Assembly: GCA_045596385.1 (NCBI GenBank)
Contig: JAZOCC010000013.1
Span: forward strand, 18,818-42,817
Source of the DNA: Lachnospiraceae bacterium
GTDB lineage: Bacteria; Bacillota; Clostridia; Lachnospirales; Lachnospiraceae
Length of the DNA: 24,000 nucleotides
Direction: 5' to 3'
Position 1 is the first letter of the stretch, and every line of letters starts with the position of its first letter. Made by a program: the position numbers and the translations under genes. Under the pieces are notes generated by a model. That model was not told where the DNA came from. It was given only the letters and a program-made list of their open reading frames with translations, and searched no databases. Of this stretch, positions 11,932-23,626 are shown piece by piece.

Positions 11932-12045
11932 TCACTAATTTGAAATCTAATTTAAGATTTATTTTAATATTTTGCCCTTTTTCACTTTAGGCATTTTTCA
12001 CAAAAAAAGCGGAAAATTTCAGTAGTTTCGACGAAGGGATTTTTC

Positions 12046-12075
12046 TTGCCTGACGGGCGATGGTTGAGGTATAAT
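12046..12075 (+). promoter_or_regulatory. Candidate distal promoter (P1) upstream of the Rpn-like gene
   Basis: TTGCCT (12046..12051), an 18-nt spacer, then TATAAT (12070..12075). It would give a ~210-nt structured leader. Confidence 0.35.
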
Positions 12076-12179
12076 AGTTTTATGACAGAGAACTGCCCTT
12101 CCGACACAGCGCGCGTGTCGAGGCATACATTCACTCTGTTTCTTCGGCGGAGATCTGCCGGGAGATTCACATTTATAGC

Positions 12180-12266
12180 GCAGAAGGAAGAAACCTATAC
12201 GTTTGCCTTGCATTTTCCGTCCAATGCCCCTATAATAAAGGCAAAGGAATGTGTGCTTCTTTCTGC
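12180..12266. repeat. Nested inverted repeat enclosing promoter P2
   Basis: The outer arms are GCAGAAGGAAG (12180..12190) and CTTCTTTCTGC (12256..12266): 11 bp with one G-T position. The inner arms are TTTGCCTT (12202..12209) and AAGGCAAA (12238..12245), 8 bp and perfect. Confidence 0.6.
12208..12236 (+). promoter_or_regulatory. Candidate proximal promoter (P2) of the Rpn-like gene
   Basis: TTGCAT (12208..12213), a 17-nt spacer, then TATAAT (12231..12236), about 55 nt upstream of ATG 12291. Confidence 0.5.
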
Positions 12267-12290
12267 AACACCAAAGGGAAAGGAGTAAAT

Positions 12291-13280
12291 ATGACAGAAA
12301 ACACATACATTTCCGATGCATTAGAAGGAAATAACAGCAAAGACCGTTTAGATACGGAAGTCAAGAAAGTACTAAGCGATAAAACGGTATTAGCTTGGAT
12401 TTTAAAGTACACCACTGCCGAGTTTAAGCGATACTCTATCGAAAGGATAAAAACGTGTATCGAAGGCACTCCGGAAGTAGGCACTCATCCATTGAATCCA
12501 AAGTCCAAACACACCGGGAAATCTCAAAAAAGCAGTAAGCATGGTCAGTCTCCGGAGGCCATCACCGGAAGCGATACCGTAGATAAAGTACCGGGCGAAG
12601 GACATGTATACTATGACATTCGCTTTTACGCGGTTACGCCTACCAAGGATCGCATCAAGCTGATACTGAATGTAGAGGCACAAAAGGCTCTCTCATTAAA
12701 GTATGACCTTGTTACAAGGGGGATTTTTTACGCTGCACGCATGATTTCTGCCCAAAAGGGTACGGAATTTACAAAAAGCAATTATGATGATATAAAGAAA
12801 GTATATTCTATCTGGATTTGCATAGAAGTTCCCAGAAACATGGAATATACCATAACATCCTATCGGATGGACAAGAAAGTCCTTTTCGGCAATCCCAGGA
12901 GACGCTTCCGCTATGACTTGATGGAAGTTGTTATGATATGTCTCGGTAGAGAAGAAACGGCTAACACCGGAACTAAACTACACGGTATGTTAAGTACCTT
13001 GCTTTCACGAAAGCTGACACCCAAAGAAAAAGAAAAATGTTTAGCTGCAGAATATGATTTTGAAACATCAACAGAACTGGAAGGAGAATTGAGACAGATG
13101 TGTAATTATAGCGATTTGATAGAAGAAAGAGGCATTGAAAAAGGTATCAAACAAGGCATTGAAAAAGGCAAACTGACCATCCTGATTGCCCTGGTTCAAG
13201 ACGGCCTGATTTCTATAGAGGAGGCCGCAAAGCGGGCCGGTATGACCGTTGAAGACCTGCAGGCTCTTATGGCAAATTAA
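12291..13280 (+). CDS. Rpn-family / PD-(D/E)XK nuclease 'putative transposase' (TIGR01784/PDDEXK_2-like)
   Basis: The start was moved to ATG 12291, with SD AGGAG at 12281. The core YYDIRFYAV...ILNVEAQK...RGIFYAARMIS...VYSIWICIE fits the D..E.QK nuclease pattern of this family. The C-terminal IEKGIKQGIEKGK...EEAAKRAGMTVEDLQALM tail is typical of it. Confidence 0.75.
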   Translation: MTENTYISDALEGNNSKDRLDTEVKKVLSDKTVLAWILKYTTAEFKRYSIERIKTCIEGTPEVGTHPLNPKSKHTGKSQKSSKHGQSPEAITGSDTVDKVPGEGHVYYDIRFYAVTPTKDRIKLILNVEAQKALSLKYDLVTRGIFYAARMISAQKGTEFTKSNYDDIKKVYSIWICIEVPRNMEYTITSYRMDKKVLFGNPRRRFRYDLMEVVMICLGREETANTGTKLHGMLSTLLSRKLTPKEKEKCLAAEYDFETSTELEGELRQMCNYSDLIEERGIEKGIKQGIEKGKLTILIALVQDGLISIEEAAKRAGMTVEDLQALMAN

Positions 13281-13333
13281 AGACGCCAAAATCTCCCGTC
13301 GAAAGGCACTCTTGGCAACCAAATAAAAACCAC

Positions 13334-13390
13334 AAGCTCTTGTCGCCGGAAGCATCACCCGCACCCGACGACAAGAGCTTTTTTATTTTC
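13334..13390. terminator. Bidirectional rho-independent terminator between the convergent Rpn-like gene and the R-M operon
   Basis: The arms are AAGCTCTTGTCG (13334..13345) and CGACAAGAGCTT (13369..13380), extendable to 16 bp with one mismatch. TTTTTTATTTT follows on the plus strand and GTGGTTTTTATTT follows on the minus strand. Confidence 0.7.
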
Positions 13391-13451
13391 TTGATTCTTT
13401 CTTAATCCTTAAGTCAGTGACTTGTACCGTTTGAGGATCGTGCCTTTGCAT

Positions 13452-13478
13452 CCTCCGCGATTGCAGCAATTGCGGAGG
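13452..13478. repeat. 27-bp near-perfect palindrome in the core/island transition
   Basis: CCTCCGCGATTGC-A-GCAATTGCGGAGG has one non-Watson-Crick position. There is no adjacent U-tract on either strand. Confidence 0.6.
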
Positions 13479-13603
13479 CCCCAGGGTAGGAAGTAACGAT
13501 GAAACGTGGAATCTGTTTGTCATAGATTTCTCTTTTTGCTTTTTTTAACCAAATTCCTGACATAATACAAATAATTATTCAGTCCAAAAACAGCAAAACA
13601 CTT

Positions 13604-14149
13604 TTATTTCAAATCAAATTTGTATGATTGCTTACCAATTTGTATGTTCCCATTCTTCAAATTGGTATTAAGATACTCTAACGCATACGGTTGAAGATTA
13701 TACGCAAACGTGGTGAAATAACTACTTATAGAAGATGCTCTATATATTATATATCTACTCTCAAGTGCCGCTTTTCTTCCATCATTTATCTCTATTCCAC
13801 CAGTAGTATGAAAACATTCATTGTTTTCATCATAAAAAGCCTCTATTAAAAGTTGCTTTTCATCTGAACTCATATTATCTTTCATATATTTTAATGCAAT
13901 TCTTTTTTCATTGTAAATCCTTCTTTTCAAACATCTTATTAGCCACTCAACTATTCGGAACAAATAATATGAACCAAGAATTATCATTCCAATGCTGATA
14001 TACGTTTGATATGAATTTCTAAATTCATACACATTAATTTTTACTGCCCACTTTTCAGGAAGCAAAGTAAGAACTAAAGAAGCAATAAATACAATTGCCA
14101 AAAGTTCTTTTAGCTTAAGCTTATCAACGATAGACTTCAAAATATCCAA
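13604..14149 (-). CDS. SieB-like (superinfection exclusion protein B family, PF14163-like) small membrane protein
   Basis: 181 aa with a TTG start at 14149, 6 nt after a strong SD (GAGGAGGAGAATAAGTTG) and 14 nt after the hsdR stop. It has two N-terminal TM helices (LLAIVFIASLVLTLL, ISIGMIILGSYYLFRIV). The soluble C-domain carries MSSDEKQLLIEAFYDENN...NDGRKAALESRYIIY...LQPYALEYL, which matches my recollection of the SieB family pattern. Confidence 0.6.
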   Translation of the reverse strand: MDILKSIVDKLKLKELLAIVFIASLVLTLLPEKWAVKINVYEFRNSYQTYISIGMIILGSYYLFRIVEWLIRCLKRRIYNEKRIALKYMKDNMSSDEKQLLIEAFYDENNECFHTTGGIEINDGRKAALESRYIIYRASSISSYFTTFAYNLQPYALEYLNTNLKNGNIQIGKQSYKFDLK

Positions 14150-14163
14150 CTTATTCTCCTCCT

Positions 14164-17100
14164 CTACGCAATCTCCTCAGAATTACGCTTTATCTCTGCC
14201 ACTACTTCCATGATACGTTTGGCAGTTCCCATATCATCTTTAAACAGTGTTGTTATACTGCCTACAGAGCGGAACGGTTCCTCCATCAACACCTTATTAT
14301 CGTCAATATTGCCGTTTGCAACAATATAATCAACGATAAGATTTACAAAACGAATCTGATTTACATTCAGTCTCTGTTCTGCCAGGAACTCACTGAATGC
14401 CTCATTTACCGCTGCCCTGTCTACACCGACAATTCTACGGACCAAGCGACCGATTGGAGTGTCTCCGTATTCCTTCTCGTAATCAGATTTTGTACCCAAA
14501 TCTTGCCACAATATCTTTTCAAGAGCCTTCAAATCCGCCGCAGTCAGTTTCTTATTATTTCGAAGTTTATACACACACAGACTGCTACCATGTTCCTTCA
14601 AATAAAACTCAACCTTCTTCCGATAATCCTTAAGGTCGCTGGAATCATAAATCGGCGCTCCCTCTTTCATATCGATAATGGTATCTGTAAAGTTTTTATA
14701 ATAAATCGGACGTACTAACTTATCCAAATACTGCAACAAATCACGTAATGCAATTCTTACCGTATCCAGTTCCATAATCGTTACATCTTCCCAGAATTCC
14801 GGCAACTGTACACGCTCTATAATTTCTCTCTGTTTCTCGACCTGTGGAATCGAATACTTTGCGGACAATCGTTCTGCCGTAAAAATAACAATATTAATCG
14901 GCGTCTGTACATTCTTACTTTGCAATAGTCCTAGTTTGATGCTGTACATAAGATAGTCAAATCTTCTGGCGAGTTCATCTTCCTTTTTCGGCTTAATCAA
15001 CGGAGATACATGTTCTTTTATCTCAGAAACCTCAACGGTTTCAAGACTGTTCCAGTTGGACAATTCGCGGAACTTTTCCACATATCTTAAGTGCCTTTTT
15101 ACCATGAAACTGTTATTATCCAGTTCAACTACCGCTTTATGTTGACCAGACACCAATTCCATTCTATAGGTAATATACGGCTTATCTTTCGCATATACAG
15201 GTGCCTGTAACTCCCTGCAGATCAACGTCTTCGTGTTATAAATCTTCTCACAAAGAGTCTCCTGAATTCCGGTTTCACTCCCGTTAGTATTCACTCTGAA
15301 ATACTCAAAGTTATTACAGAAGTCAAATATCAGGAAACGCTCCTTATCGATCCCGGCTCCCAATAAATCAGGACAAAGTCTGGTTCCTCGTCCGATCATC
15401 TGCCAAAACTTTGCATAACTGCGCACCTTTTTAAAGAACACCAGATTCAAAATCTCCGGTATATCGATACCGGTATCCAACATATCTACCGACACAGCAA
15501 TCTGCGGCATTTTCTCTTTCGTGCTAAAATCGTCAATTAAAGTATCACAATATTTTATACTATAATCAATCTGCTTAATAAAGTCTCCACCACATTCCGG
15601 GAAGAGTACATTAAAGCGTTTCACAATCTCTTTGGCATGCAAACTATTCTTCGCAAAAATAATCGTTTTGCCAAGCTTGTCTCCACCTTCAATCTTCAAA
15701 CCTTTTTCCATTAATTCTTTCAAAACTTTATCAATCGTGTCTTGATTAAATAGCCACGTATTAATCGCAGAACTGGAAATATCCTCATCCACCATATCAT
15801 CGTCGGCAAAAGTCTCTTCAAACTCTTCCTTCTCTTCCTCAGACAACTCATCATAGTGAATGCCATCTTCCATAATCTTTGTCTTATATTCCAGCGTAGA
15901 ATAATTTACAAGATACCCCTCTTCTACGGCCTTTTCCAGCTCATAAGCAAAAGTCGGAACACCACGTTCCAGGTCAAACACACCGTAAGTATTCTTGTCA
16001 ATTTCATTCTTTGGAGTCGCGGTCATTCCCAACAACATAGCATCAAAATACTCGAAGATTTCCTGATACTTCCGATAAATCGAACGATGAACTTCATCAC
16101 AGATGATAAGGTCAAAATGTCCCGGAGAAAACAATCTTTCTCCATACTTATTCTTCTTTTCATCGATTGCATTCATCATGGTCGGATAGGTTGAAAAAAT
16201 CATTCTCGAACTTTCCGGGTCATCCTTACTGTCACATAAATTACAGCAAGATAAATCTTCTAACAAGCTTGTATAACTGTTCTTCGCCTGTTTTACAAGT
16301 GCAGTTCTATCCGCCAAAAACAGAATGTTCTTTACATAGTTGTGCCGTCTTAATACGTCCACAATGCTGATACTAACTCTGGTCTTACCGGAACCGGTTG
16401 CTTGAACAATCAGCATCTTTCTATGTTTCTTCGCAATCGCATCACACACCGCCGTTATTGCCTCTTTCTGATACGGTCTGTTAGTGATTATATCGCTGAT
16501 TTCAATACGGTCCAAAGGAATCCGCTGTTCTCTTCGGTCTACTTCTAACTGTAACTCTTCCTGCGTAAAGAAGCCAGACACTTGTCTTCTCGGGTAGCCG
16601 CAAGCATCATTCGTATAATAAAACTCAAAACCGTTAGTGGTAAAAATAAGCGGTCTACGCCCATACTTATTTTGCAAACAATCTGCGTACAACTTCGCCT
16701 GCTGACTACCTACAATCGCATCTACAGACGCCTTTTTCGCTTCCACCACAGCCAAAGGCAAATTATCTTTGCCCCATAAAACATAATCCACATATCCCGT
16801 ACCGGTAGGATTCGGCATACCGGTAACCGGCTCCTCAATGGTACAATTTCTCCCTATGACCCAACCGGCTTCCTGCAACTCCACATCAATATATCTTGCG
16901 CGAGTCTCTGCCTCGCTCATCGTATCCACATGGAATTCTCGTGTCTGCGTATGTACCTTACGTTCTTCCGCCATCTGCTTACGCAGTTCTTCATTCTCCT
17001 TAAGAATCTGTTCCAGTTTCACATCTTTACTGCTTAAACTATCATACAGCTTTTTAAGCTCCTCTGCTTTTACACGTTTCTCATCACCGGATACAAGAAG

Positions 17101-17514
17101 TGTCTCGTCAAAGGTTCTCTCCTCATATTCCTCAGAATAACAAAAATCAATCCAATCACAGAACTCAAACAAATCACGTAACGAAATAATTGCCTCATCA
17201 CGCTTGATATTGCTATTCGTATGTACTGCAACATTCCCCAAATGAATCGTATACTTAAGCATAGGAAACAAACGCGGCTCAATAATGTCGCGGAAGGATT
17301 TTTCATGAATCAAACTCGATATATTATCCTGATAAGGAAGCTGCAAATCTGCATCATACGAAAAAACAAATCTTACCGCCAACTCTAATGCTCTTCTTGC
17401 CAAAATTGCACAAGTTGCCGGAGAAATCGCAAGACTTTTCTCTGCTTCAACCGCCTGAGCAGCAAATCCTTTATATTCTTTTTTCGCTAACAGGTAATCA
17501 AAATTTGTTTCCAA
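14164..17514 (-). CDS. hsdR: Type I restriction enzyme R subunit (N-terminal DUF4145-like domain + coiled coil, PD-(D/E)xK nuclease, SF2 helicase, EcoEI-R-type C-terminal domain)
   Basis: The nuclease motif is GYVDYVLWG...VVEAKK. The helicase motifs are I QATGSGKT, II ICDEVHRS, III GMTATP and VI QMIGRGTR. The TTG start at 17514 is 7 nt after AAGGAGGG, and the N-terminus METNFDYL is typical for this HsdR class. Confidence 0.95.
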   Translation of the reverse strand: METNFDYLLAKKEYKGFAAQAVEAEKSLAISPATCAILARRALELAVRFVFSYDADLQLPYQDNISSLIHEKSFRDIIEPRLFPMLKYTIHLGNVAVHTNSNIKRDEAIISLRDLFEFCDWIDFCYSEEYEERTFDETLLVSGDEKRVKAEELKKLYDSLSSKDVKLEQILKENEELRKQMAEERKVHTQTREFHVDTMSEAETRARYIDVELQEAGWVIGRNCTIEEPVTGMPNPTGTGYVDYVLWGKDNLPLAVVEAKKASVDAIVGSQQAKLYADCLQNKYGRRPLIFTTNGFEFYYTNDACGYPRRQVSGFFTQEELQLEVDRREQRIPLDRIEISDIITNRPYQKEAITAVCDAIAKKHRKMLIVQATGSGKTRVSISIVDVLRRHNYVKNILFLADRTALVKQAKNSYTSLLEDLSCCNLCDSKDDPESSRMIFSTYPTMMNAIDEKKNKYGERLFSPGHFDLIICDEVHRSIYRKYQEIFEYFDAMLLGMTATPKNEIDKNTYGVFDLERGVPTFAYELEKAVEEGYLVNYSTLEYKTKIMEDGIHYDELSEEEKEEFEETFADDDMVDEDISSSAINTWLFNQDTIDKVLKELMEKGLKIEGGDKLGKTIIFAKNSLHAKEIVKRFNVLFPECGGDFIKQIDYSIKYCDTLIDDFSTKEKMPQIAVSVDMLDTGIDIPEILNLVFFKKVRSYAKFWQMIGRGTRLCPDLLGAGIDKERFLIFDFCNNFEYFRVNTNGSETGIQETLCEKIYNTKTLICRELQAPVYAKDKPYITYRMELVSGQHKAVVELDNNSFMVKRHLRYVEKFRELSNWNSLETVEVSEIKEHVSPLIKPKKEDELARRFDYLMYSIKLGLLQSKNVQTPINIVIFTAERLSAKYSIPQVEKQREIIERVQLPEFWEDVTIMELDTVRIALRDLLQYLDKLVRPIYYKNFTDTIIDMKEGAPIYDSSDLKDYRKKVEFYLKEHGSSLCVYKLRNNKKLTAADLKALEKILWQDLGTKSDYEKEYGDTPIGRLVRRIVGVDRAAVNEAFSEFLAEQRLNVNQIRFVNLIVDYIVANGNIDDNKVLMEEPFRSVGSITTLFKDDMGTAKRIMEVVAEIKRNSEEIA

Positions 17515-18592
17515 ATCTGTTCCCTCCTTCTTTATATATCCTCTGGCTTATGATAAGTAAAAATTTCAATTTGTCGACTTGTTCAACGAAGTTTGCAAAC
17601 TGCTCTTGTTGTTCAACTGGTGGCACAGGAATCCTAATATTCTCAACGATAGACTTAGATATTTCCTTGAATGTTGCACCACGTCCAAGAGCATTCAAGT
17701 ATTCTGTATTTAAGAGAAGAAGCGTGTATAAATATCGCGGAACAATCTCCTCATTGCAGATAATGTTCTTGAACCCCTGATTACAATAAAAAGTTGAACC
17801 TGCAATTGCAACCTTGCCAATAGGGGCTCTTGAAGACAAAATCACAGTATTAGCAGGCATTTCCTGCAAAGAGCAACTATCTACACCCGCTTTTGTCAAC
17901 TTGCGAACAGAATCATAAATATAACCGCTATCCGCATCAAGTTCAGCAGGAGTTATCCATTTGTATTCACCATCCCAATATTCCTCGATATTAGTTTTCG
18001 GTGTGGCGCCGCTCACAACCTTACCTATTTCAAAAATAGATTTCCAATCACTCTGAGAATAAGATAAATCAAATTCCCCAAACATCTCCACAAATCGGGA
18101 TTTGATGAGATTGTCCAGTTCTTCCAACTCTATCTTGCGCTTCTTCTTTATCTCAACGACCTTATTCAATTTATCAACTATACTTATTTGTTCCTCTAAT
18201 GTTCTTTTCGGTATCATCATCTTGCGCATAGCCGCTTGTGTCAACTTCTGTCTAGTTGCTCCATTAACCATTCCATCCACATTATAAAACATCAGAGAAT
18301 AACATAAATAATCTACATCTATTCCTTCTTTGGGTTTTAATACATGCGCGTGATTATTTACCCAGCACTTTCCTGAAACACGATAGGCAATAGGTCTTTC
18401 CTTGGAACCAAAGTTTCCACCATCCTCTGCCAATAAAACCAACTCATCATCAAATAAATAATCTGCCACATGGTCCTGAATTCCATTGGCACCATAATAT
18501 GGATATGGTCCCTCTTCTCTGTCCGATGCAGTAATCGGAACTCTCATGGAATCTAATATCTCACAGCAATCTTCTATGTATATTTTATCCAT
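17498..18592 (-). CDS. hsdS: Type I R-M specificity subunit, copy A (TRD_X - central conserved region - TRD_Y; aberrant C-terminal tail)
   Basis: It has two target-recognition domains separated by ELDNLIKSRFVEMFG. The distal conserved region stops after QFANFVEQVDKLKF and is replaced by LLIISQRIYKEGGNRFGNKF. It overlaps the hsdR start by 17 nt. The start is ATG 18592. Confidence 0.9.
   Translation of the reverse strand: MDKIYIEDCCEILDSMRVPITASDREEGPYPYYGANGIQDHVADYLFDDELVLLAEDGGNFGSKERPIAYRVSGKCWVNNHAHVLKPKEGIDVDYLCYSLMFYNVDGMVNGATRQKLTQAAMRKMMIPKRTLEEQISIVDKLNKVVEIKKKRKIELEELDNLIKSRFVEMFGEFDLSYSQSDWKSIFEIGKVVSGATPKTNIEEYWDGEYKWITPAELDADSGYIYDSVRKLTKAGVDSCSLQEMPANTVILSSRAPIGKVAIAGSTFYCNQGFKNIICNEEIVPRYLYTLLLLNTEYLNALGRGATFKEISKSIVENIRIPVPPVEQQEQFANFVEQVDKLKFLLIISQRIYKEGGNRFGNKF
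17564..17583. repeat. Distal-conserved-region repeat D, copy A (20 nt, identical to 19745..19764, direct)
   Basis: TTTCAATTTGTCGACTTGTT encodes (E)QVDKLK on the minus strand. Homology to copy B ends abruptly on the 3' (low-coordinate) side. Confidence 0.9.
18078..18106. repeat. Central-conserved-region repeat C, copy A (29 nt, identical to 20234..20262, direct)
   Basis: CCAAACATCTCCACAAATCGGGATTTGAT encodes IKSRFVEMFG on the minus strand. It contains the internal palindrome CAAATC-GG-GATTTG. Confidence 0.9.
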
Positions 18593-18597
18593 TTTAT

Positions 18598-18620
18598 ATC
18601 ATCTCCACAAATCTGAATTT
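18598..18620. repeat. hsdS 5'-junction repeat J, copy A (23 nt, identical to 20794..20816, direct)
   Basis: ATCATCTCCACAAATCTGAATTT supplies the SD (GGAG) of hsdS_A and begins 4 nt after the recombinase stop. Confidence 0.9.
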
Positions 18621-18624
18621 GCGG

Positions 18625-19596
18625 TTATCCGATGAATTTCCTATGAGAGTTCTTTACATTGCTCTGATTAACCATAGCATAATGCATGGTCGTATCAATT
18701 TGTTGATGTCCCAATAGGCGTTGTACTTGCTCTATCGGCATTCCTTTGTCTATTGCTTTTGTTGCCATGGAACGCCTGAATTTATGTGGATGTACTTTCT
18801 CAATATTGAGTCGACGTCCAAGATTTCTTAACCGTATCTCAACTCCACTTATCTTTAATCGTTCACTGGGCTTGTCCAGTGTCACAAATAAAGCTTCATT
18901 TCTATCTGTTCTGCTCTTCAAATATTCTTGCAGATGAATTTTAGCCCTTGCATCAAAGTATACTCGTCGTTCCTTATTTCCCTTACCATACACAACGCAT
19001 TCCCGTTCCTCAAAATTAATATCAGCCTTATTTAGATTCACCAATTCACCAACTCGAATTCCAGCAGAATACAACAAATCAATGATTGCCAAATCCCTTA
19101 TGTTTTTACAGTTATCGCGCATAACTTCAATGTTTTCGTCAGAAAAAGTTTCCTTCACACGGGTACCGGTTCTTACCTTATGAATTCGCCGTATTGGACT
19201 TTTCAATATATGATCTTCATCTTCCAACCAAGAAAAGAAACTGGACAAATTCCGTCGAATATTGTCAATCGTTACCCGCCCGCAATTATTCTTTACCTGA
19301 TACTGCGTTAAGTACTCTCGTAAGTCCTCTGTCGTGATTTGCCTTACCGGTGTCTTTATATCCAAAAACATATTCTGAATCGTGCTCCGATAGTACTCTA
19401 TGGTACGTTCAGAACACCCCTCAATCCGCTTGGCAGCAACAAACATATCAAGATACTCTTTATTATCAATCTCCCTTGTAATTTCCGGGTCCGTCCTCTG
19501 CAAATATTTTAGCAAACATTCCTGTAACCTTCTCATTTGCTGGACATCAAGACACTCCGACATATCGTTCAATATTCTACAAATCGCATTCTCCAT
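18625..19596 (-). CDS. Tyrosine site-specific recombinase (XerC/D-like, shufflon-type integrase)
   Basis: The N-terminal SAM-like domain is followed by a catalytic domain with AGIRVGEL (Arg), GKGNKERRV (Lys), HPHKFRRSMAT (HxxR) and LLGHQQIDTTMHY (His, Tyr nucleophile). Confidence 0.9.
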   Translation of the reverse strand: MENAICRILNDMSECLDVQQMRRLQECLLKYLQRTDPEITREIDNKEYLDMFVAAKRIEGCSERTIEYYRSTIQNMFLDIKTPVRQITTEDLREYLTQYQVKNNCGRVTIDNIRRNLSSFFSWLEDEDHILKSPIRRIHKVRTGTRVKETFSDENIEVMRDNCKNIRDLAIIDLLYSAGIRVGELVNLNKADINFEERECVVYGKGNKERRVYFDARAKIHLQEYLKSRTDRNEALFVTLDKPSERLKISGVEIRLRNLGRRLNIEKVHPHKFRRSMATKAIDKGMPIEQVQRLLGHQQIDTTMHYAMVNQSNVKNSHRKFIG

Positions 19597-19633
19597 TTTG
19601 GTATACTCCTTTTTTCACCCAGTATACCAAAAT
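19595..19633. promoter_or_regulatory. 13-bp perfect inverted repeat spanning the recombinase start codon, SD and predicted -10
   Basis: ATTTTGGTATACT (19595..19607) and AGTATACCAAAAT (19621..19633) are exact reverse complements, separated by a 13-nt spacer that contains most of the SD (AAGGAG on the coding strand). Confidence 0.7.
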
Positions 19634-19648
19634 CAAATATTTCTGCAA
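19621..19648 (-). promoter_or_regulatory. Candidate internal extended -10 promoter for the recombinase gene
   Basis: On the minus strand: TTGCAG (19648..19643), a 16-nt spacer ending in TGG, then TATACT (19626..19621). It lies in the 66-nt gap between the hsdS_B stop and the recombinase ATG. Confidence 0.45.
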
Positions 19649-19662
19649 GAACATCCTTTTAC

Positions 19663-20790
19663 TTATCCGAAGTACTTCTGCATAAGCGAATCCATTAGTT
19701 GCTGCGTTTCATCCAACGATTTCTGTACTTCAACTTTCAATTTGTCGACTTGTTTCGCAAATTGTTCAAACCCCCCTTGAAGCTCTATTGGTGGATATGG
19801 AAATGGATATGCTTTTAATGCAGGCATTTCAATACCGCTTTGTCCCGCTGTTCGCTGTGATAAACCATCCAAATAATTAAATAAACAATCTTGCTTCAAG
19901 AAATATCGTATAAACTCTTTATTTCCCATCTTTGGTGTTGCCTTCATAAGTGCAACATTATAAGCACCTTCAATGCCTTTAAGAATCTGGAAAATTGGGG
20001 GGCCATATCTTCCAATCATAATATCATCTGCATCACAAAATCTTTTTGCCATGGATTTTGGAATATATGTAACATAGTTATCTGTTTTATAATCTCTAAT
20101 CTGAATCAGACGAACATTATCTTCCGTTAGCTTATATTCAAAATATTTCTTATCAGGTTGAGCTCCACCAGTAAATTCTATGACATCATCAACCGTCAAC
20201 ATTGGAAACCCTTTTTCATTCGCATTAGGAGTTCCAAACATCTCCACAAATCGGGATTTGATAAGTTGGTCCAATTCAAACAATTCTTTCCGCCGTAATA
20301 CAAGTATTTCGCTACCCTTCTGCAGCTGATATGCAATTTTCTTTTGCACATCCATTTTAGGCACTTCTATCTCTATATTTTCAACAATTGACTTAGAAAT
20401 CTCCTTAAATGTAGCCCCTCTCCCTAAAGAATTTAAATAATCCTTCTTACACTTTAGAAACCAATAGAGATACTCATTATATATTTCCTCTGTACAAATC
20501 AAATTCTTGAATCCTTGGTTACAATACATCTCACAACCAGCAATTGCTACTTTCCCTATAGGCGCTCTTGATGATAAAATCACCGTTCCTTTCGGAAATG
20601 AATTTAAGCCTGTTTTCTCAACTGCAAGTTCAGTAATCTTTCTCGCAGAGTCTTCTAAAATATATGAATCTTCGGTTAATTCAGCTGGTGTAATCCATTT
20701 GACATCACCATCCCAAAATTCTTCCACATTAGTCTTGGGCGTACTTCCTGAAACAACATTACATATATCACCTAACCGTCTTTTTGCCAT
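19663..20790 (-). CDS. hsdS: Type I R-M specificity subunit, copy B (TRD_Y' - central conserved region - TRD_Z; intact C-terminal helix)
   Basis: It has two TRDs separated by ELDQLIKSRFVEMFG, and the distal conserved region is complete (FEQFAKQVDKLKVEVQKSLDETQQLMDSLMQKYFG). ATG 20790 lies 24 nt after the hsdM stop. Confidence 0.9.
   Translation of the reverse strand: MAKRRLGDICNVVSGSTPKTNVEEFWDGDVKWITPAELTEDSYILEDSARKITELAVEKTGLNSFPKGTVILSSRAPIGKVAIAGCEMYCNQGFKNLICTEEIYNEYLYWFLKCKKDYLNSLGRGATFKEISKSIVENIEIEVPKMDVQKKIAYQLQKGSEILVLRRKELFELDQLIKSRFVEMFGTPNANEKGFPMLTVDDVIEFTGGAQPDKKYFEYKLTEDNVRLIQIRDYKTDNYVTYIPKSMAKRFCDADDIMIGRYGPPIFQILKGIEGAYNVALMKATPKMGNKEFIRYFLKQDCLFNYLDGLSQRTAGQSGIEMPALKAYPFPYPPIELQGGFEQFAKQVDKLKVEVQKSLDETQQLMDSLMQKYFG
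19745..19764. repeat. Distal-conserved-region repeat D, copy B
   Basis: TTTCAATTTGTCGACTTGTT is identical to 17564..17583 and in the same orientation. Confidence 0.9.
20234..20262. repeat. Central-conserved-region repeat C, copy B
   Basis: Identical 29-mer in the same orientation as 18078..18106. Confidence 0.9.
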
Positions 20791-20793
20791 TTC

Positions 20794-20816
20794 ATCATCT
20801 CCACAAATCTGAATTT
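20794..20816. repeat. hsdS 5'-junction repeat J, copy B
   Basis: Identical 23-mer that supplies the SD of hsdS_B and overlaps the hsdM stop codon. Confidence 0.9.
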
Positions 20817-22278
20817 ATTTAAGTCCAAGCAAACTCTTAAGCTCCGAAAACTCCTTTTGAATCTCTGCCTCAATCTGCTCTATTTTACCGATAATTACTT
20901 CTGTAGACTCGTACTCAACCTGTTCATATACCACTTCTTTATACTTATTAATGGACAGGTCATAATCATTGGCAATAATCTCATCCACTGGCACAAAGAA
21001 GCTTTGCTCTGTTCTTGCTCTATCTGTCTCGGTTTCCAAGTTATTAAAACGCTTGATAATGTCCGGAATATCGCAGTCAGAAATCTCCTGTCGCTTATCG
21101 TCCAAACTATATCCATCAGCCTTCATATCATAAAACCATACCTTGTCCGTTCCGCCGGAACCGGTCTTCGTAAAGATTAAGATTGCCGTAGATACACCTG
21201 CATACGGCTTAAACACACCACTCGGCATAGATATTACTGCATCCAACTTATTGTTATTTATAATCTCTGTTCGAATCTGCTTATGTGCATTGCTACTACC
21301 AAACAACACTCCATCCGGAACAATTACAGCCGCTCTTCCACCCTTTTTCAAAATACGCAAAAACAGTGCCAAGAAAAGCAACTCTGTCTTTTTCGTCTTG
21401 GTTACTTTCAACAAATCGGCTGATACTGCTTCATAGTCCAAGCTCCCTTTAAACGGCGGATTAGCCAATACAAGAGTATACTTCTCCGAATCCGTATTCT
21501 GCTCAGACAGACTGTCTCTATAGGAAATATTCGGATTATCAACACCGTGTAACATCATATTCATGGCACCGATACGAAGCATCGTTCTATCCATATCATT
21601 TCCGTAAAACATTTCGTTATTGAAATGCTCTCTCAATTTAGCATTTAAGAACATGTCCGCATGATTATCCCTTAAATACTGTTGCGCCTCAATTAGGAAA
21701 CCTGCACTTCCCATTGCCGGGTCAATAATAATGTCATCCGGCTTCGGTTTTACCAAATCCACCATCATTCTAATGATATGACGTGGTGTTCTAAACTGAC
21801 CATTTGTACCTGCTGTAGCAACTTTCGAAAGCAAATACTCATACAAATCCCCCTTAGAGTCTGCATCCCCCAATTCTAGCTTGTCAATACCGTCAACAAT
21901 CTTAGTCAACATTGCTGCAGTCGGAATCTTAAAGATTGCATCTCCCATGTATCTGGCATATGCAGAATCTCCATCCTGATGCAAATTCTTTATAAACGGA
22001 AACACTTCATTTGCCACAAGCTTATACATCTCATCAGCAGAACCCAGATTCTTAAACTTGCTCCACTTATACTTCTGATAATCCCCTGCAAACATCGACT
22101 CAAACGGCACCCCGAGGAAATTAGCCTCATTCTCTTTTACGGTATCCATATCGTCCAACTGCTTTATAAACAGCAAATATGTAAACTGCTCAATAACATC
22201 CAGAGGATTGGTTATTCCTCCGGTCCAAAAGGTTTCCCATATCTTGTCTATCTTATTACGTAATTCGCCTGTAATCAT
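20815..22278 (-). CDS. hsdM: Type I R-M N6-adenine DNA methyltransferase subunit
   Basis: It has an HsdM N-terminal domain, AdoMet motif I IIDPAMGSAGFL and catalytic motif IV LANPPFKGS. Length is 487 aa and the start is ATG 22278. Confidence 0.95.
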   Translation of the reverse strand: MITGELRNKIDKIWETFWTGGITNPLDVIEQFTYLLFIKQLDDMDTVKENEANFLGVPFESMFAGDYQKYKWSKFKNLGSADEMYKLVANEVFPFIKNLHQDGDSAYARYMGDAIFKIPTAAMLTKIVDGIDKLELGDADSKGDLYEYLLSKVATAGTNGQFRTPRHIIRMMVDLVKPKPDDIIIDPAMGSAGFLIEAQQYLRDNHADMFLNAKLREHFNNEMFYGNDMDRTMLRIGAMNMMLHGVDNPNISYRDSLSEQNTDSEKYTLVLANPPFKGSLDYEAVSADLLKVTKTKKTELLFLALFLRILKKGGRAAVIVPDGVLFGSSNAHKQIRTEIINNNKLDAVISMPSGVFKPYAGVSTAILIFTKTGSGGTDKVWFYDMKADGYSLDDKRQEISDCDIPDIIKRFNNLETETDRARTEQSFFVPVDEIIANDYDLSINKYKEVVYEQVEYESTEVIIGKIEQIEAEIQKEFSELKSLLGLK

Positions 22279-22349: not shown

Positions 22350-23027
22350 CTACTCGGTTTGTAATGTACCATACCGGACACAAATCTCATAATCAAATTT
22401 TACTTCCTTTCCTTTATCAAAACGAACAGTCACATATTTCCCCTCTCGTCTTATTATTGTACCGCAACCACGCTTCCTGTGTCTAACACGACCACCAATT
22501 TCATTCAATCTATCAGCGTTCTTACTATCCTTGCAAGTTCCAATCCTTGCCCTAATCCATGTCTTATCCAATTCTTTCATTACATAATATCTAAGATATT
22601 TATCCTCGAGATAATATTTTCCATCTTTTATAGAAACATAGATTGGCTTATCCATTTTCTTATGTTCCTCATAGTACGCTCGCAATTCCGCCACCTTTTG
22701 AGAACTCGGAGGTTGCTTCAAAAACTTTTCCGGAACCACAATTTCTTTAATCTTAATAGTACGCACACCGACAAATTCTTCTGCCTCTTCCTTTTTCAGT
22801 TCTTGAATAACAGCCTTTGTTCGTTCAATTGTAGACACACCTTCTCTTCTGTTCTCCGCCTCTTCTTCCCCATAAAATCCACAATGAGCCGAGCCTCCAC
22901 ATCTAGACATATAAGCACAGGAACCGTCTTTATGATAATGTACACACCATTTTCTATGTCTTCGTTCGTCTTTCTTATGTACATATGTAATACCGTTTGT
23001 CCCTTCAACAAATCCGTGTTCTCTCAT
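22350..23027 (-). CDS. Uncharacterised three-module protein: N-terminal Cys/His cluster, ParB/Srx-like middle region, C-terminal Tudor/DUF3553-like domain
   Basis: 225 aa, starting at ATG 23027 with SD GAGGAG. The N-terminus is CVHYHKDGSCAYMSRCGGSAHC. The middle, IKIKEIVVPEKF...PIYVSIKDGKYYLEDKYLRYYVMKEL...IRARI, resembles the ParB N-domain layout but lacks a clear GxxR arginine motif. The C-terminus, RVRHRKRGCGTIIRREGKYVTVRFDKGKEVKF, resembles the PcrA/UvrD C-terminal Tudor-type motif. All domain calls are by eye. Confidence 0.6.
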   Translation of the reverse strand: MREHGFVEGTNGITYVHKKDERRHRKWCVHYHKDGSCAYMSRCGGSAHCGFYGEEEAENRREGVSTIERTKAVIQELKKEEAEEFVGVRTIKIKEIVVPEKFLKQPPSSQKVAELRAYYEEHKKMDKPIYVSIKDGKYYLEDKYLRYYVMKELDKTWIRARIGTCKDSKNADRLNEIGGRVRHRKRGCGTIIRREGKYVTVRFDKGKEVKFDYEICVRYGTLQTE

Positions 23028-23082: not shown

Positions 23083-23583
23083 TTACTTTTCCTCTATTAT
23101 ATCAAGCAAGTCCTCATAAAATTCTTTTTTTAAACGTGCATTTTCTAAATACACTAAAGAAATAACGAGCACAACAACTAATGGCCCAAACTTTCCCGTA
23201 CTATTTATTTCCAGATTTTTTTTCATGAAGAAATCATCTATAGAAAGTAATGCAATATAGAGCGGAATCAAAATAATCTTTACTGCCTCCAACTCTCCTT
23301 TTGCATATCTCCTTTTCTGTTCTAGCCAATGAACAAAATTTTCTTTTTCACAAGAATTCTGTACTGGGAAAACCTCTTTTATATGATTTTTCCACTCCAA
23401 ATAGGTATCACAAAACTTATACTTATTTTCTTTCTTATTTATTTTCCTTCTGAACCAACGACGAATATTCAATATCCATCCACGATTTGCCGTTTTTCGG
23501 TTTCCATAATCCTTCCCTACATAGTGATATGTTTTCAACTCATATTTTTCATTAATATTATACGCTTGAAACTCATTCTTCAT
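23083..23583 (-). CDS. Uncharacterised small membrane protein (basic N-terminal domain + two C-terminal TM helices)
   Basis: The track start 23598 is GTG; I prefer ATG 23583, preceded by AAGTGAGG. The TM segments are AVKIILIPLYIALLSI and FGPLVVVLVISLVYL. No family was recognised. It is the first gene after the island promoter. Confidence 0.6.
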   Translation of the reverse strand: MKNEFQAYNINEKYELKTYHYVGKDYGNRKTANRGWILNIRRWFRRKINKKENKYKFCDTYLEWKNHIKEVFPVQNSCEKENFVHWLEQKRRYAKGELEAVKIILIPLYIALLSIDDFFMKKNLEINSTGKFGPLVVVLVISLVYLENARLKKEFYEDLLDIIEEK

Positions 23584-23626
23584 ATAATTTTGCCTCACTT
23601 TCTAACTCTTTCACCTTATCTCTTTA

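Follow-up and report, generated by a model that had tools for sequence, protein, structure and literature searches.

A tvr-type restriction-modification locus in a gut Lachnospiraceae genome that probably changes specificity by excision and reintegration at direct repeats

How might a type I restriction-modification (R-M) locus change its specificity if it has two hsdS genes and a recombinase gene, and all of its genes and repeats point the same way? This question is raised by a stretch of 24,000 nucleotides (nt) from a gut Lachnospiraceae bacterium (assembly GCA_045596385.1, contig JAZOCC010000013.1, positions 18,818 to 42,817 of the forward strand). We refer to this whole 24-kb stretch as the window, and coordinates are those of the window unless another locus is named; loci that were fetched for comparison are numbered with the prefix L. 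Open reading frame (ORF) calls and Pfam matches place hsdM, a first hsdS gene (hsdS-1), a tyrosine recombinase gene (int), a second hsdS gene (hsdS-2), and hsdR in a single minus-strand operon that spans 14.1-22.3 kb, which agrees with the gene order and common orientation reported in an initial annotation of this DNA. We conclude that the locus is probably a translocating variable restriction system of the tvr type (SpnIV-like), that is, a type I R-M system that switches when DNA is excised at direct repeats and then reintegrated. The locus is homologous to the tvr locus of Streptococcus pneumoniae; its repeats form pairs of sites in one orientation; the C-terminal tails of its hsdS genes are specific to the slot; and modules have relocated among its close relatives. 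From these observations, we infer that the source strain switches.

The five genes are all on the minus strand. The operon starts with hsdM (20815-22278, 487 amino acids [aa]; Pfam N6_Mtase at 4.6e-71, and HsdM_N). It is followed by hsdS-1 in the putative expression slot (19663-20790, 375 aa; Methylase_S), int, which encodes a homologue of TvrR (18625-19596, 323 aa; Phage_integrase and a SAM-like domain), and hsdS-2 in the putative storage slot (17498-18592, 364 aa; Methylase_S in two stretches). The last gene is hsdR (14164-17514, 1116 aa; ResIII, EcoEI_R_C, and Helicase_C), whose start codon is TTG, with GAAGGAGGG ahead of it. The first four genes are separated by gaps of 24, 66, and 32 nt, and the last two, hsdS-2 and hsdR, share 17 nt. 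As had been noted, each hsdS has its own ATG and Shine-Dalgarno sequence: GGAG is found 8-10 nt before the ATG.

Three pairs of sites link the two hsdS genes, and every pair is direct, with both members in the same (minus-strand) orientation. The first pair, which we call MPRu, is a variant of the midpoint repeat (MPR). It consists of two copies, 100% identical, of the 23-nt sequence AAATTCAGATTTGTGGAGATGAT. MPRu-1 (20794-20816) begins inside the stop codon of hsdM and ends 3 nt before the ATG of hsdS-1, while MPRu-2 (18598-18620) lies between the stop codon of the recombinase gene and the ATG of hsdS-2. MPRu carries the GGAG that is the ribosome-binding site of each hsdS. A site of this kind is also present at the hsdM/TES and int/TES junctions of L081, L083, and L091. 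The second pair, MPRc, is the central midpoint repeat: the 29-nt sequence ATCAAATCCCGATTTGTGGAGATGTTTGG, which encodes (I)KSRFVEMFG, occurs in the central conserved region of hsdS-1 (20234-20262; MPRc-1) and, as an exact copy, in that of hsdS-2 (18078-18106; MPRc-2). The third pair is the core of the tail-end repeat (TER). This 15-nt core, GTCGACAAATTGAAA, encodes VDKLK and is found at 19735-19749, inside a 63-nt tail-end repeat (19732-19794) and next to the tail of hsdS-1, and as an exact copy at 17564-17578, inside the second tail-end repeat (17561-17623). The two 63-nt repeats are 75% identical to each other.

Within the three pairs of sites, identity is complete (23/23, 29/29, and 15/15 nt), whereas the surrounding DNA is merely 74-84% identical. 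In the direction of transcription, the map of the locus is hsdM-MPRu-X-MPRc-Y-TER-tail1-(hairpin)int-MPRu-Z-MPRc-X'-TER-tail2-hsdR, where X, Y, Z, and X' are modules that encode target recognition domains (TRDs). The initial annotation had listed the exact repeats, but their organization as three pairs of sites had gone unseen. Its statement that every repeat is direct was correct: exact direct repeats between the hsdS regions reach 29 nt and exact inverted repeats only 11 nt, which is at the level of chance (shuffled sequences gave a mean of 10.4 nt, and 39% of them had an inverted repeat of at least 11 nt).

The upstream site has another peculiarity. In another frame, the 23-nt repeat encodes KFRFVEMM, which is close to the central KSRFVEMFG (20790-20820 and 18592-18625), so the upstream site looks like a vestige of the midpoint region before each N-terminal module. 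The ATG of hsdS-1 is in frame with the stop codon of hsdM, at a distance of 8 codons.

Both hsdS genes contain two TRDs. In hsdS-1, module X (~20263-20790) is followed by the central repeat, module Y (~19750-20233), the TER core, and tail1 (19663-19734); in hsdS-2, module Z (~18107-18592) is followed by MPRc-2, module X' (~17579-18077), the second TER core, and tail2 (17498-17563). Modules X and X' are 64% identical at the amino acid level and 74% identical at the nucleotide level. The C terminus of the protein encoded by hsdS-1 is a conserved tail, VEVQKSLDETQQLMDSLMQKYFG, which resembles the tails of the upstream hsdS genes in most related loci as well as the pneumococcal tail LAIQKSLEELETLKKSLMQEYFG. 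In contrast, the homology of hsdS-2 is lost right after ...FVEQVDKLK, and the gene ends with an unrelated, nonconserved read-through of 21 aa, FLLIISQRIYKEGGNRFGNKF, which overlaps the start of hsdR. The locus had been described as having two complete hsdS genes. Both are indeed open and have two TRDs, but hsdS-2 lacks the conserved C-terminal tail and runs into unrelated codons, so it is an open reading frame but not a complete HsdS. When both HsdS proteins were compared to all six frames of the 24-kb window with tblastn, no further hsdS fragment was found on either strand. An extension of the tblastn alignments into the end of hsdM (20892-20790), which suggested a likeness between the C terminus of HsdM and the central helix of HsdS, was judged to reflect coiled-coil composition.

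The same asymmetry is seen across related loci. We compared the tails of 36 co-directional pairs of hsdS genes, each with a recombinase gene between them, from 33 loci. The upstream hsdS ends with ...QKxL...LMQxYFG in 27 of the 36 pairs, and the others have a tail of the SGELDVS type or are cut. In about 30 of the 36, the downstream hsdS either ends or loses homology directly after DK(L/S)K. The exceptions are downstream copies that have another recombinase or hsdS after them, or belong to loci with a different type of HsdS (with the SGELDVS-type tail). Such a pattern is expected from recurrent crossing over at the TER core: each tail goes with a slot and not with a module.

A system with these properties is known from S. 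pneumoniae. In the tvr/SpnIV locus, all genes are on one strand, and there are TRD-encoding sequences on both sides of tvrATR (Kwun et al. 2018, Nucleic Acids Res 46:11438, PMC6265443). In its "2+2" arrangements, one hsdS lies on each side of the recombinase gene tvrR, and its repeats, an MPR of ~18 bp on the flanks of N-terminal modules and a TER of ~70 bp at the 3' end of C-terminal ones, are both direct (PMC6265443). Shuffling was shown experimentally to depend on TvrR: excised circles reintegrate at another repeat (PMC6265443). For comparison, we used a pneumococcal tvr locus (L092) that was retrieved via a TRD sequence from Table S4 of Kwun et al. (PMC6265443). Along their full lengths (323 and 321 aa), the recombinase from the window and TvrR are 59.4% identical (E = 3e-146). 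HsdM is 64.9% identical to its tvr counterpart, and HsdR is 48% identical, with both HsdR proteins being 1116 aa long.

By homology, the TvrR-like recombinase would recombine two like-oriented sites of one type, with crossovers expected inside AAAT(C/T)C(C/A)GATTTGTGGAGATG or GTCGACAAATTGAAA. The excised circle would be ~2.2 kb and would carry int together with one or two TRD modules. A crossover between the MPRu copies would give a circle of 2196 bp, one between the MPRc copies a circle of 2156 bp, and one between the TERs a circle of 2171 bp. If the circle reintegrates at a site of a different type, then the pair of TRDs in the expression slot, which is the region between hsdM and tail1, should change. 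Four alleles of the expression slot would be possible: X-Y (the present state), Z-X', X-X', and Z-Y. Under this model, hsdS-2 would be a storage copy. Only the gene in the first slot gains the C-terminal helix of tail1, and we infer that hsdS-1 encodes the sole active specificity subunit. Excision of a circle with the recombinase and an hsdS, followed by reintegration, was also the mechanism favored in the initial annotation, and it is the best-supported one, given the homology to tvr, the direct sites, and the modules that have moved in relatives.

Evidence for moved modules comes from loci (L081-L091) whose recombinases are 98-99% identical to the one in the window. These loci are collinear with the window only between sites, and the breakpoints in homology are at MPRu, MPRc, and TER. 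In particular, a 574-nt segment that comprises MPRu, module X, and part of MPRc (window 20816-20243) has counterparts with 99.65% identity in L083 (2564-3137) and L085 (1218-1791). Module X lies downstream of int in these two loci and after hsdM in the window, and the DNA of int is only ~90% identical. L085 itself is a metagenomic contig of 2322 nt (ENA ERZ27318230, k141_47084) whose ends overlap by exactly 117 nt, which leaves a unit of 2205 nt. This unit has the structure tail1-int-MPRu-X-MPRc-TES-TER and matches L083 1441-3657 at 99.4% identity; judging from its sequence, it is what TER x TER excision from an L083-type chromosome is predicted to yield. Only ~12 nt (GACAAATTGAAA) are common to both TER partners of the L083/L085 junction. 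A second lineage shows a similar relocation: a TRD block of 1.66 kb precedes int in L095 and follows it in L097. One and the same HsdS body (95.7% identity over 345 aa) also carries tail1 just upstream of int in L095 and tail2 just upstream of hsdR in L097.

Several points weigh against a tvr-type switch at this locus. First, the near-identity of module X to its counterparts (99.65%, versus ~90% for the flanks) could be due to horizontal exchange by homologous recombination in the conserved flanks. Second, the self-overlap of L085 could reflect a tandem duplication, or two chromosomal arrangements mixed in one sample, and not a free circle; each of the three, including the free circle, implies site-specific exchange at the TER. 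Third, the MPR and TER of tvr are reported to share a core of ~11 bp (PMC6265443). In the window, the midpoint and tail-end repeats resemble each other only loosely, with an AAAT-N4-ATTT-like pattern (AAATCCCGATTT, AAATTCAGATTT, and AAATTGAAATTT); a shared core is thus no more than weakly visible. Fourth, the window contains neither the tvrA/tvrT (Phd/Doc) pair nor a terminator-type attenuator, and just 66 nt separate hsdS-1 from int. Upstream of its recombinase gene, the pneumococcal locus L092 has tvrA, tvrT (Fic/Doc), and a hairpin with a T-run after it. We treat tvrAT and the attenuator as accessory regulation, outside the core mechanism. Finally, two of the hybrid junctions that the model predicts for the window, X'-TER-tail1 and hsdM-MPRu-Z, had no match in two exact-pattern scans of metagenome contigs from JGI, which is uninformative because the presence of the strain in those samples is uncertain.

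The recombinase is well conserved. Its Pfam matches are Phage_integrase (6.8e-36) and Phage_int_SAM_4, and it scores above the cutoff of an XerA-like model from NCBIfam. All of the residues that we assigned as its catalytic set are present (R181, K205, H271, R274, H297, and Y306). Its ORF is intact, and the mean column identity across homologues is 81%. The NCBIfam name ("XerA / integron integrase") might suggest an integron; we rejected this reading, as the protein falls far short of the cutoffs of the integron-integrase models, and its putative sites, which are repeats in coding regions, do not have attC-type structures. A widespread group of hsdS-linked recombinases, "clade 2 TvrR," has been described from Firmicutes, Bacteroidetes, Actinobacteria, and Euryarchaeota (Huang et al. 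2020, Nucleic Acids Res 48:11468, PMC7672463). Based on its 59% identity to TvrR, and not on phylogeny, the recombinase from the window presumably belongs to this group.

The translation of int may be restrained by its own leader. The 66 nt between hsdS-1 and int contain a minus-strand hairpin (19595-19633) with a perfect stem of 13 bp and a loop of 13 nt, and no T-tract. AAGGAG and the first two nucleotides of the recombinase start codon, ATG, fall within the 3' arm and loop of this hairpin. The predicted folding energy of the RNA is -18.6 kcal/mol (z = -4.0), and 0 of 200 shuffled sequences were as stable. The hairpin is kept in the family even though its sequence varies widely: among 75 distinct int leaders from loci L001-L098, the median z was -2.47, 63% had z below -2, and the ribosome-binding region was at least 50% paired in 91%. 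For the leaders of hsdM, hsdR, and hsdS from the same loci, the median z was about 0, and 7-9% were below -2. As both the ribosome-binding site and the start codon of int are buried in the hairpin, synthesis of the recombinase, and hence switching, is probably kept rare. We propose that the predicted hairpin is plausibly a translational brake on switching. The tvr and clade 2 TvrR literature that we consulted has no description of a hairpin in the recombinase leader.

We also asked how common this layout is. The loci of clade 2 TvrR recombinases were reported to have mixed orientations, including one Sphaerochaeta locus with direct instead of inverted repeats, and excision and reintegration was proposed for a minority of them, with direct-repeat loci deemed to be a small proportion (PMC7672463). 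That survey was built around inverted repeats (PMC7672463), whereas the fully co-directional order hsdS-int-hsdS is the most common single layout among the 80 closest species-level loci that we examined (recombinases 60-77% identical). This layout occurs in 27 of the 80, including loci from Lachnospiraceae, Roseburia, Veillonella, Clostridium, and Treponema, so co-directional pairs of hsdS genes do recur in homologous loci. Another 17 loci have int followed by co-directional hsdS genes only, and several of these are M-int-S-S-S-R arrays from Bacteroidia. At least one hsdS on the opposite strand, often of half size, is present in 21 loci. The rest are cut by the ends of contigs or show no hsdS.

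Some of the related loci have unusual structures. L003 (1424-5318) and L020 (4106-7902) contain tandem units of a recombinase gene and a half or whole hsdS, in the order S-int-S-int-S-R, and the repeated hsdS genes have identical tail1 sequences; these arrays could have arisen when a circle integrated into an intact locus, or when the assembly read through circular forms. A substantial fraction of the homologous recombinases are on contigs of 1.1-3.4 kb, many of them ~2.0-2.3 kb, and an MPRc or TER site marks the end of the contigs L084 and L086-L088. Short contigs that end at these sites suggest that assembly graphs branch there because several arrangements coexist in the samples.

Although a tvr-type switch fits these data best, we considered whether the locus might be locked or decaying, that is, whether it inherited its architecture but no longer rearranges at a meaningful rate. 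Nonshuffling natural isolates do exist in pneumococcus, where some isolates with truncated repeats do not shuffle (PMC6265443). The hairpin could make translation of the recombinase very low, or even silence it, and the window has no toxin-antitoxin module to stabilize the circles. However, all three pairs of sites are intact and identical amid more diverged DNA, and the recombinase ORF is intact and retains the expected catalytic residues. The same hairpin is found across the family, including in lineages whose modules have moved. We consider a locked locus to be unlikely.

It is somewhat less likely still that the locus is a static system with dual specificity, in which the operon expresses both HsdS subunits together, these compete for HsdM and HsdR to yield two fixed motifs, and the recombinase is idle or is used otherwise. 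The initial annotation had offered two simultaneous specificities as an alternative. Each hsdS has an open reading frame with its ATG and GGAG, and hsdS-2 is probably transcribed, since hsdR is downstream of everything. A scan for promoters and terminators gave counts no higher than in shuffled sequences and no informative or strong terminator-like site between hsdM and hsdR. But hsdS-2 lacks the C-terminal helix tail, like most downstream copies in the family, and in pneumococcal 2+2 loci, methylation is driven by the upstream hsdS only; the downstream hsdS gave none (PMC6265443). Also, the recombinase, with its expected catalytic residues, is strongly conserved beside these repeats, and modules sit in different slots in close relatives.

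Homologous recombination by RecA between the direct repeats, which would give only deletions or gene conversion and would make the integrase gene a hitchhiker from a mobile element, is very improbable. Low-level excision across the long TERs does persist without TvrR in pneumococcus (PMC6265443). Here, however, the sites are exactly identical over only 15-29 nt, and the partners of the L083/L085 junction over ~12 nt; such tracts are too short for efficient RecA-type recombination. The recombinase gene is also closely linked to this architecture in a wide range of loci. Last, an ordinary invertible shufflon of the ivr/SpnD39III type, with overlooked inverted repeats or cassettes, is suggested by the oppositely oriented hsdS genes in 21 of the 80 loci with homologous recombinases, but it is refuted for the window, unless an inverted cassette lies beyond the ends of the window and outside the hsdM-hsdR operon: the 24-kb window contains no inverted partial hsdS cassette, no exact inverted repeat between the hsdS regions reaches the ~15 bp that had been suggested as a threshold, and all six recombination-type sites are in one orientation. 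We also ruled out the best imperfect inverted repeat (16 nt at 88% identity, 17547-17562 and 19657-19672) as an inversion site, as it is one of 29 similar pairs of chance grade.

The operon lies on an island of low GC content: ~38%, versus ~50% to the left of ~12.3 kb. The neighboring housekeeping genes have counterparts among proteins labeled as "Lachnospiraceae bacterium" from metagenome-assembled genomes. The GC content drops near 12.3 kb (within 12000-14200), and the boundary region contains a plus-strand ORF (12249-13280) that resembles PD-(D/E)XK_2 transposases, although the Pfam match is weak and below the cutoff. Directly downstream of hsdR is a SieB-like superinfection-exclusion gene (13604-14149); this 181-aa gene also follows hsdR in L081 and L082. 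Upstream of hsdM, two minus-strand ORFs (22350-23027, 225 aa, and 23083-23598, 171 aa) have no match in Pfam or NCBIfam. Some related loci contain additional genes that the window lacks. In L091, whose recombinase is 99% identical, a TIR-domain gene separates hsdM from hsdS, a RhuM-family gene separates hsdS-2 from hsdR, and a Fic gene lies upstream of hsdM. L097 has a ThsB_TIR gene downstream of hsdR, and L005, L008, L009, and L011 have ORFs of 0.5-1 kb between hsdS-1 and int, where pneumococcus has tvrAT.

Overall, the locus is real and well preserved, and the type of system is not new. A mechanism that was characterized only in pneumococcus seems to be preserved, site for site, in an uncultured gut Lachnospiraceae. 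As the co-directional hsdS-recombinase-hsdS layout is common among gut anaerobes, tools that search only for inverted repeats would miss such epigenetic phase variation. The map of the sites predicts the sizes of the circles and the four alleles, so the switch is directly testable. The conserved hairpin at the start of the recombinase gene is a candidate for the element that sets the rate, and mutating it could lock or accelerate the switch. Two by-products of this analysis are of most use: the predicted hairpin that recombinase leaders share across the family, and the finding of how often gut anaerobes have the co-directional layout.

A broader reading with four parts is more tentative. First, excision and reintegration, rather than inversion, would be the prevailing mode by which the TvrR clade diversifies type I systems in gut Firmicutes. 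Second, these loci would form a subfamily that is simpler and more permissive than the pneumococcal prototype: a midpoint-type site would double as the ribosome-binding site before every module, and whole hsdS bodies would swap between expression and storage slots that are defined only by their fixed tails. Third, the conserved, covarying hairpin would set the rate of switching, in place of the toxin-antitoxin module and the attenuator. Fourth, circles may carry modules between strains, as the 99.65% identity of module X, versus ~90% for its flanks, might indicate. We put the chance that all four hold together at a little below even.

How does the locus compare with known systems? The initial annotation had presented the layout as differing from the known switches, but both the layout and the mechanism were already shown for tvr/SpnIV of S. 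pneumoniae (PMC6265443), of which the window contains a clear homologue. The two loci share the one-strand gene order hsdM, TRD modules, recombinase, TRD modules, hsdR, in the 2+2 arrangement. They also share the types of repeats, their positions, and their orientation; the window has four midpoint-type copies and two tail-end copies. The pneumococcal MPR, AAATCCCGATTTAACGAGATGTTTGGGGA, encodes KSRFNEMFG and shares its first 12 nt, AAATCCCGATTT, with MPRc of the window (KSRFVEMFG). Similarly, the pneumococcal TER ends with ...GTCGACAAATCACAATT (VDKSQ), which has GTCGACAAAT in common with the TER core of the window, GTCGACAAATTGAAA (VDKLK). The downstream hsdS of pneumococcus likewise diverges right after VDKSQ.

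There are differences as well. Where tvr has an attenuator, the window has a hairpin over the ribosome-binding site and ATG of int. The window also has a midpoint-type repeat after hsdM, before the first module, whereas the first pneumococcal module has no 5' repeat and is immobile. With such a site before the first module, N-terminal modules or whole hsdS bodies should be exchangeable in the window. Also, X is at the N-terminal position and X' is at the C-terminal position, and yet they are 64% identical, so types of TRD do not seem to be strictly specific to a position, unlike in tvr. Lastly, the host is a gut Lachnospiraceae, represented by a metagenome-assembled genome, and the locus lies on a low-GC island. 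The resemblance to the inverting shufflons (S. pneumoniae ivr/SpnD39III, Mycoplasma pulmonis hsd, and those of Bacteroides fragilis and Listeria monocytogenes) is more general: a tyrosine recombinase gene is found among several TRD sequences, and HsdS changes combinatorially. In the inverting shufflons, the repeats are inverted, the silent cassettes are oppositely oriented, and a single event suffices to change specificity. In the window, all of the sites are direct, two events (excision and reintegration) would be needed, and the recombinase gene itself would move.

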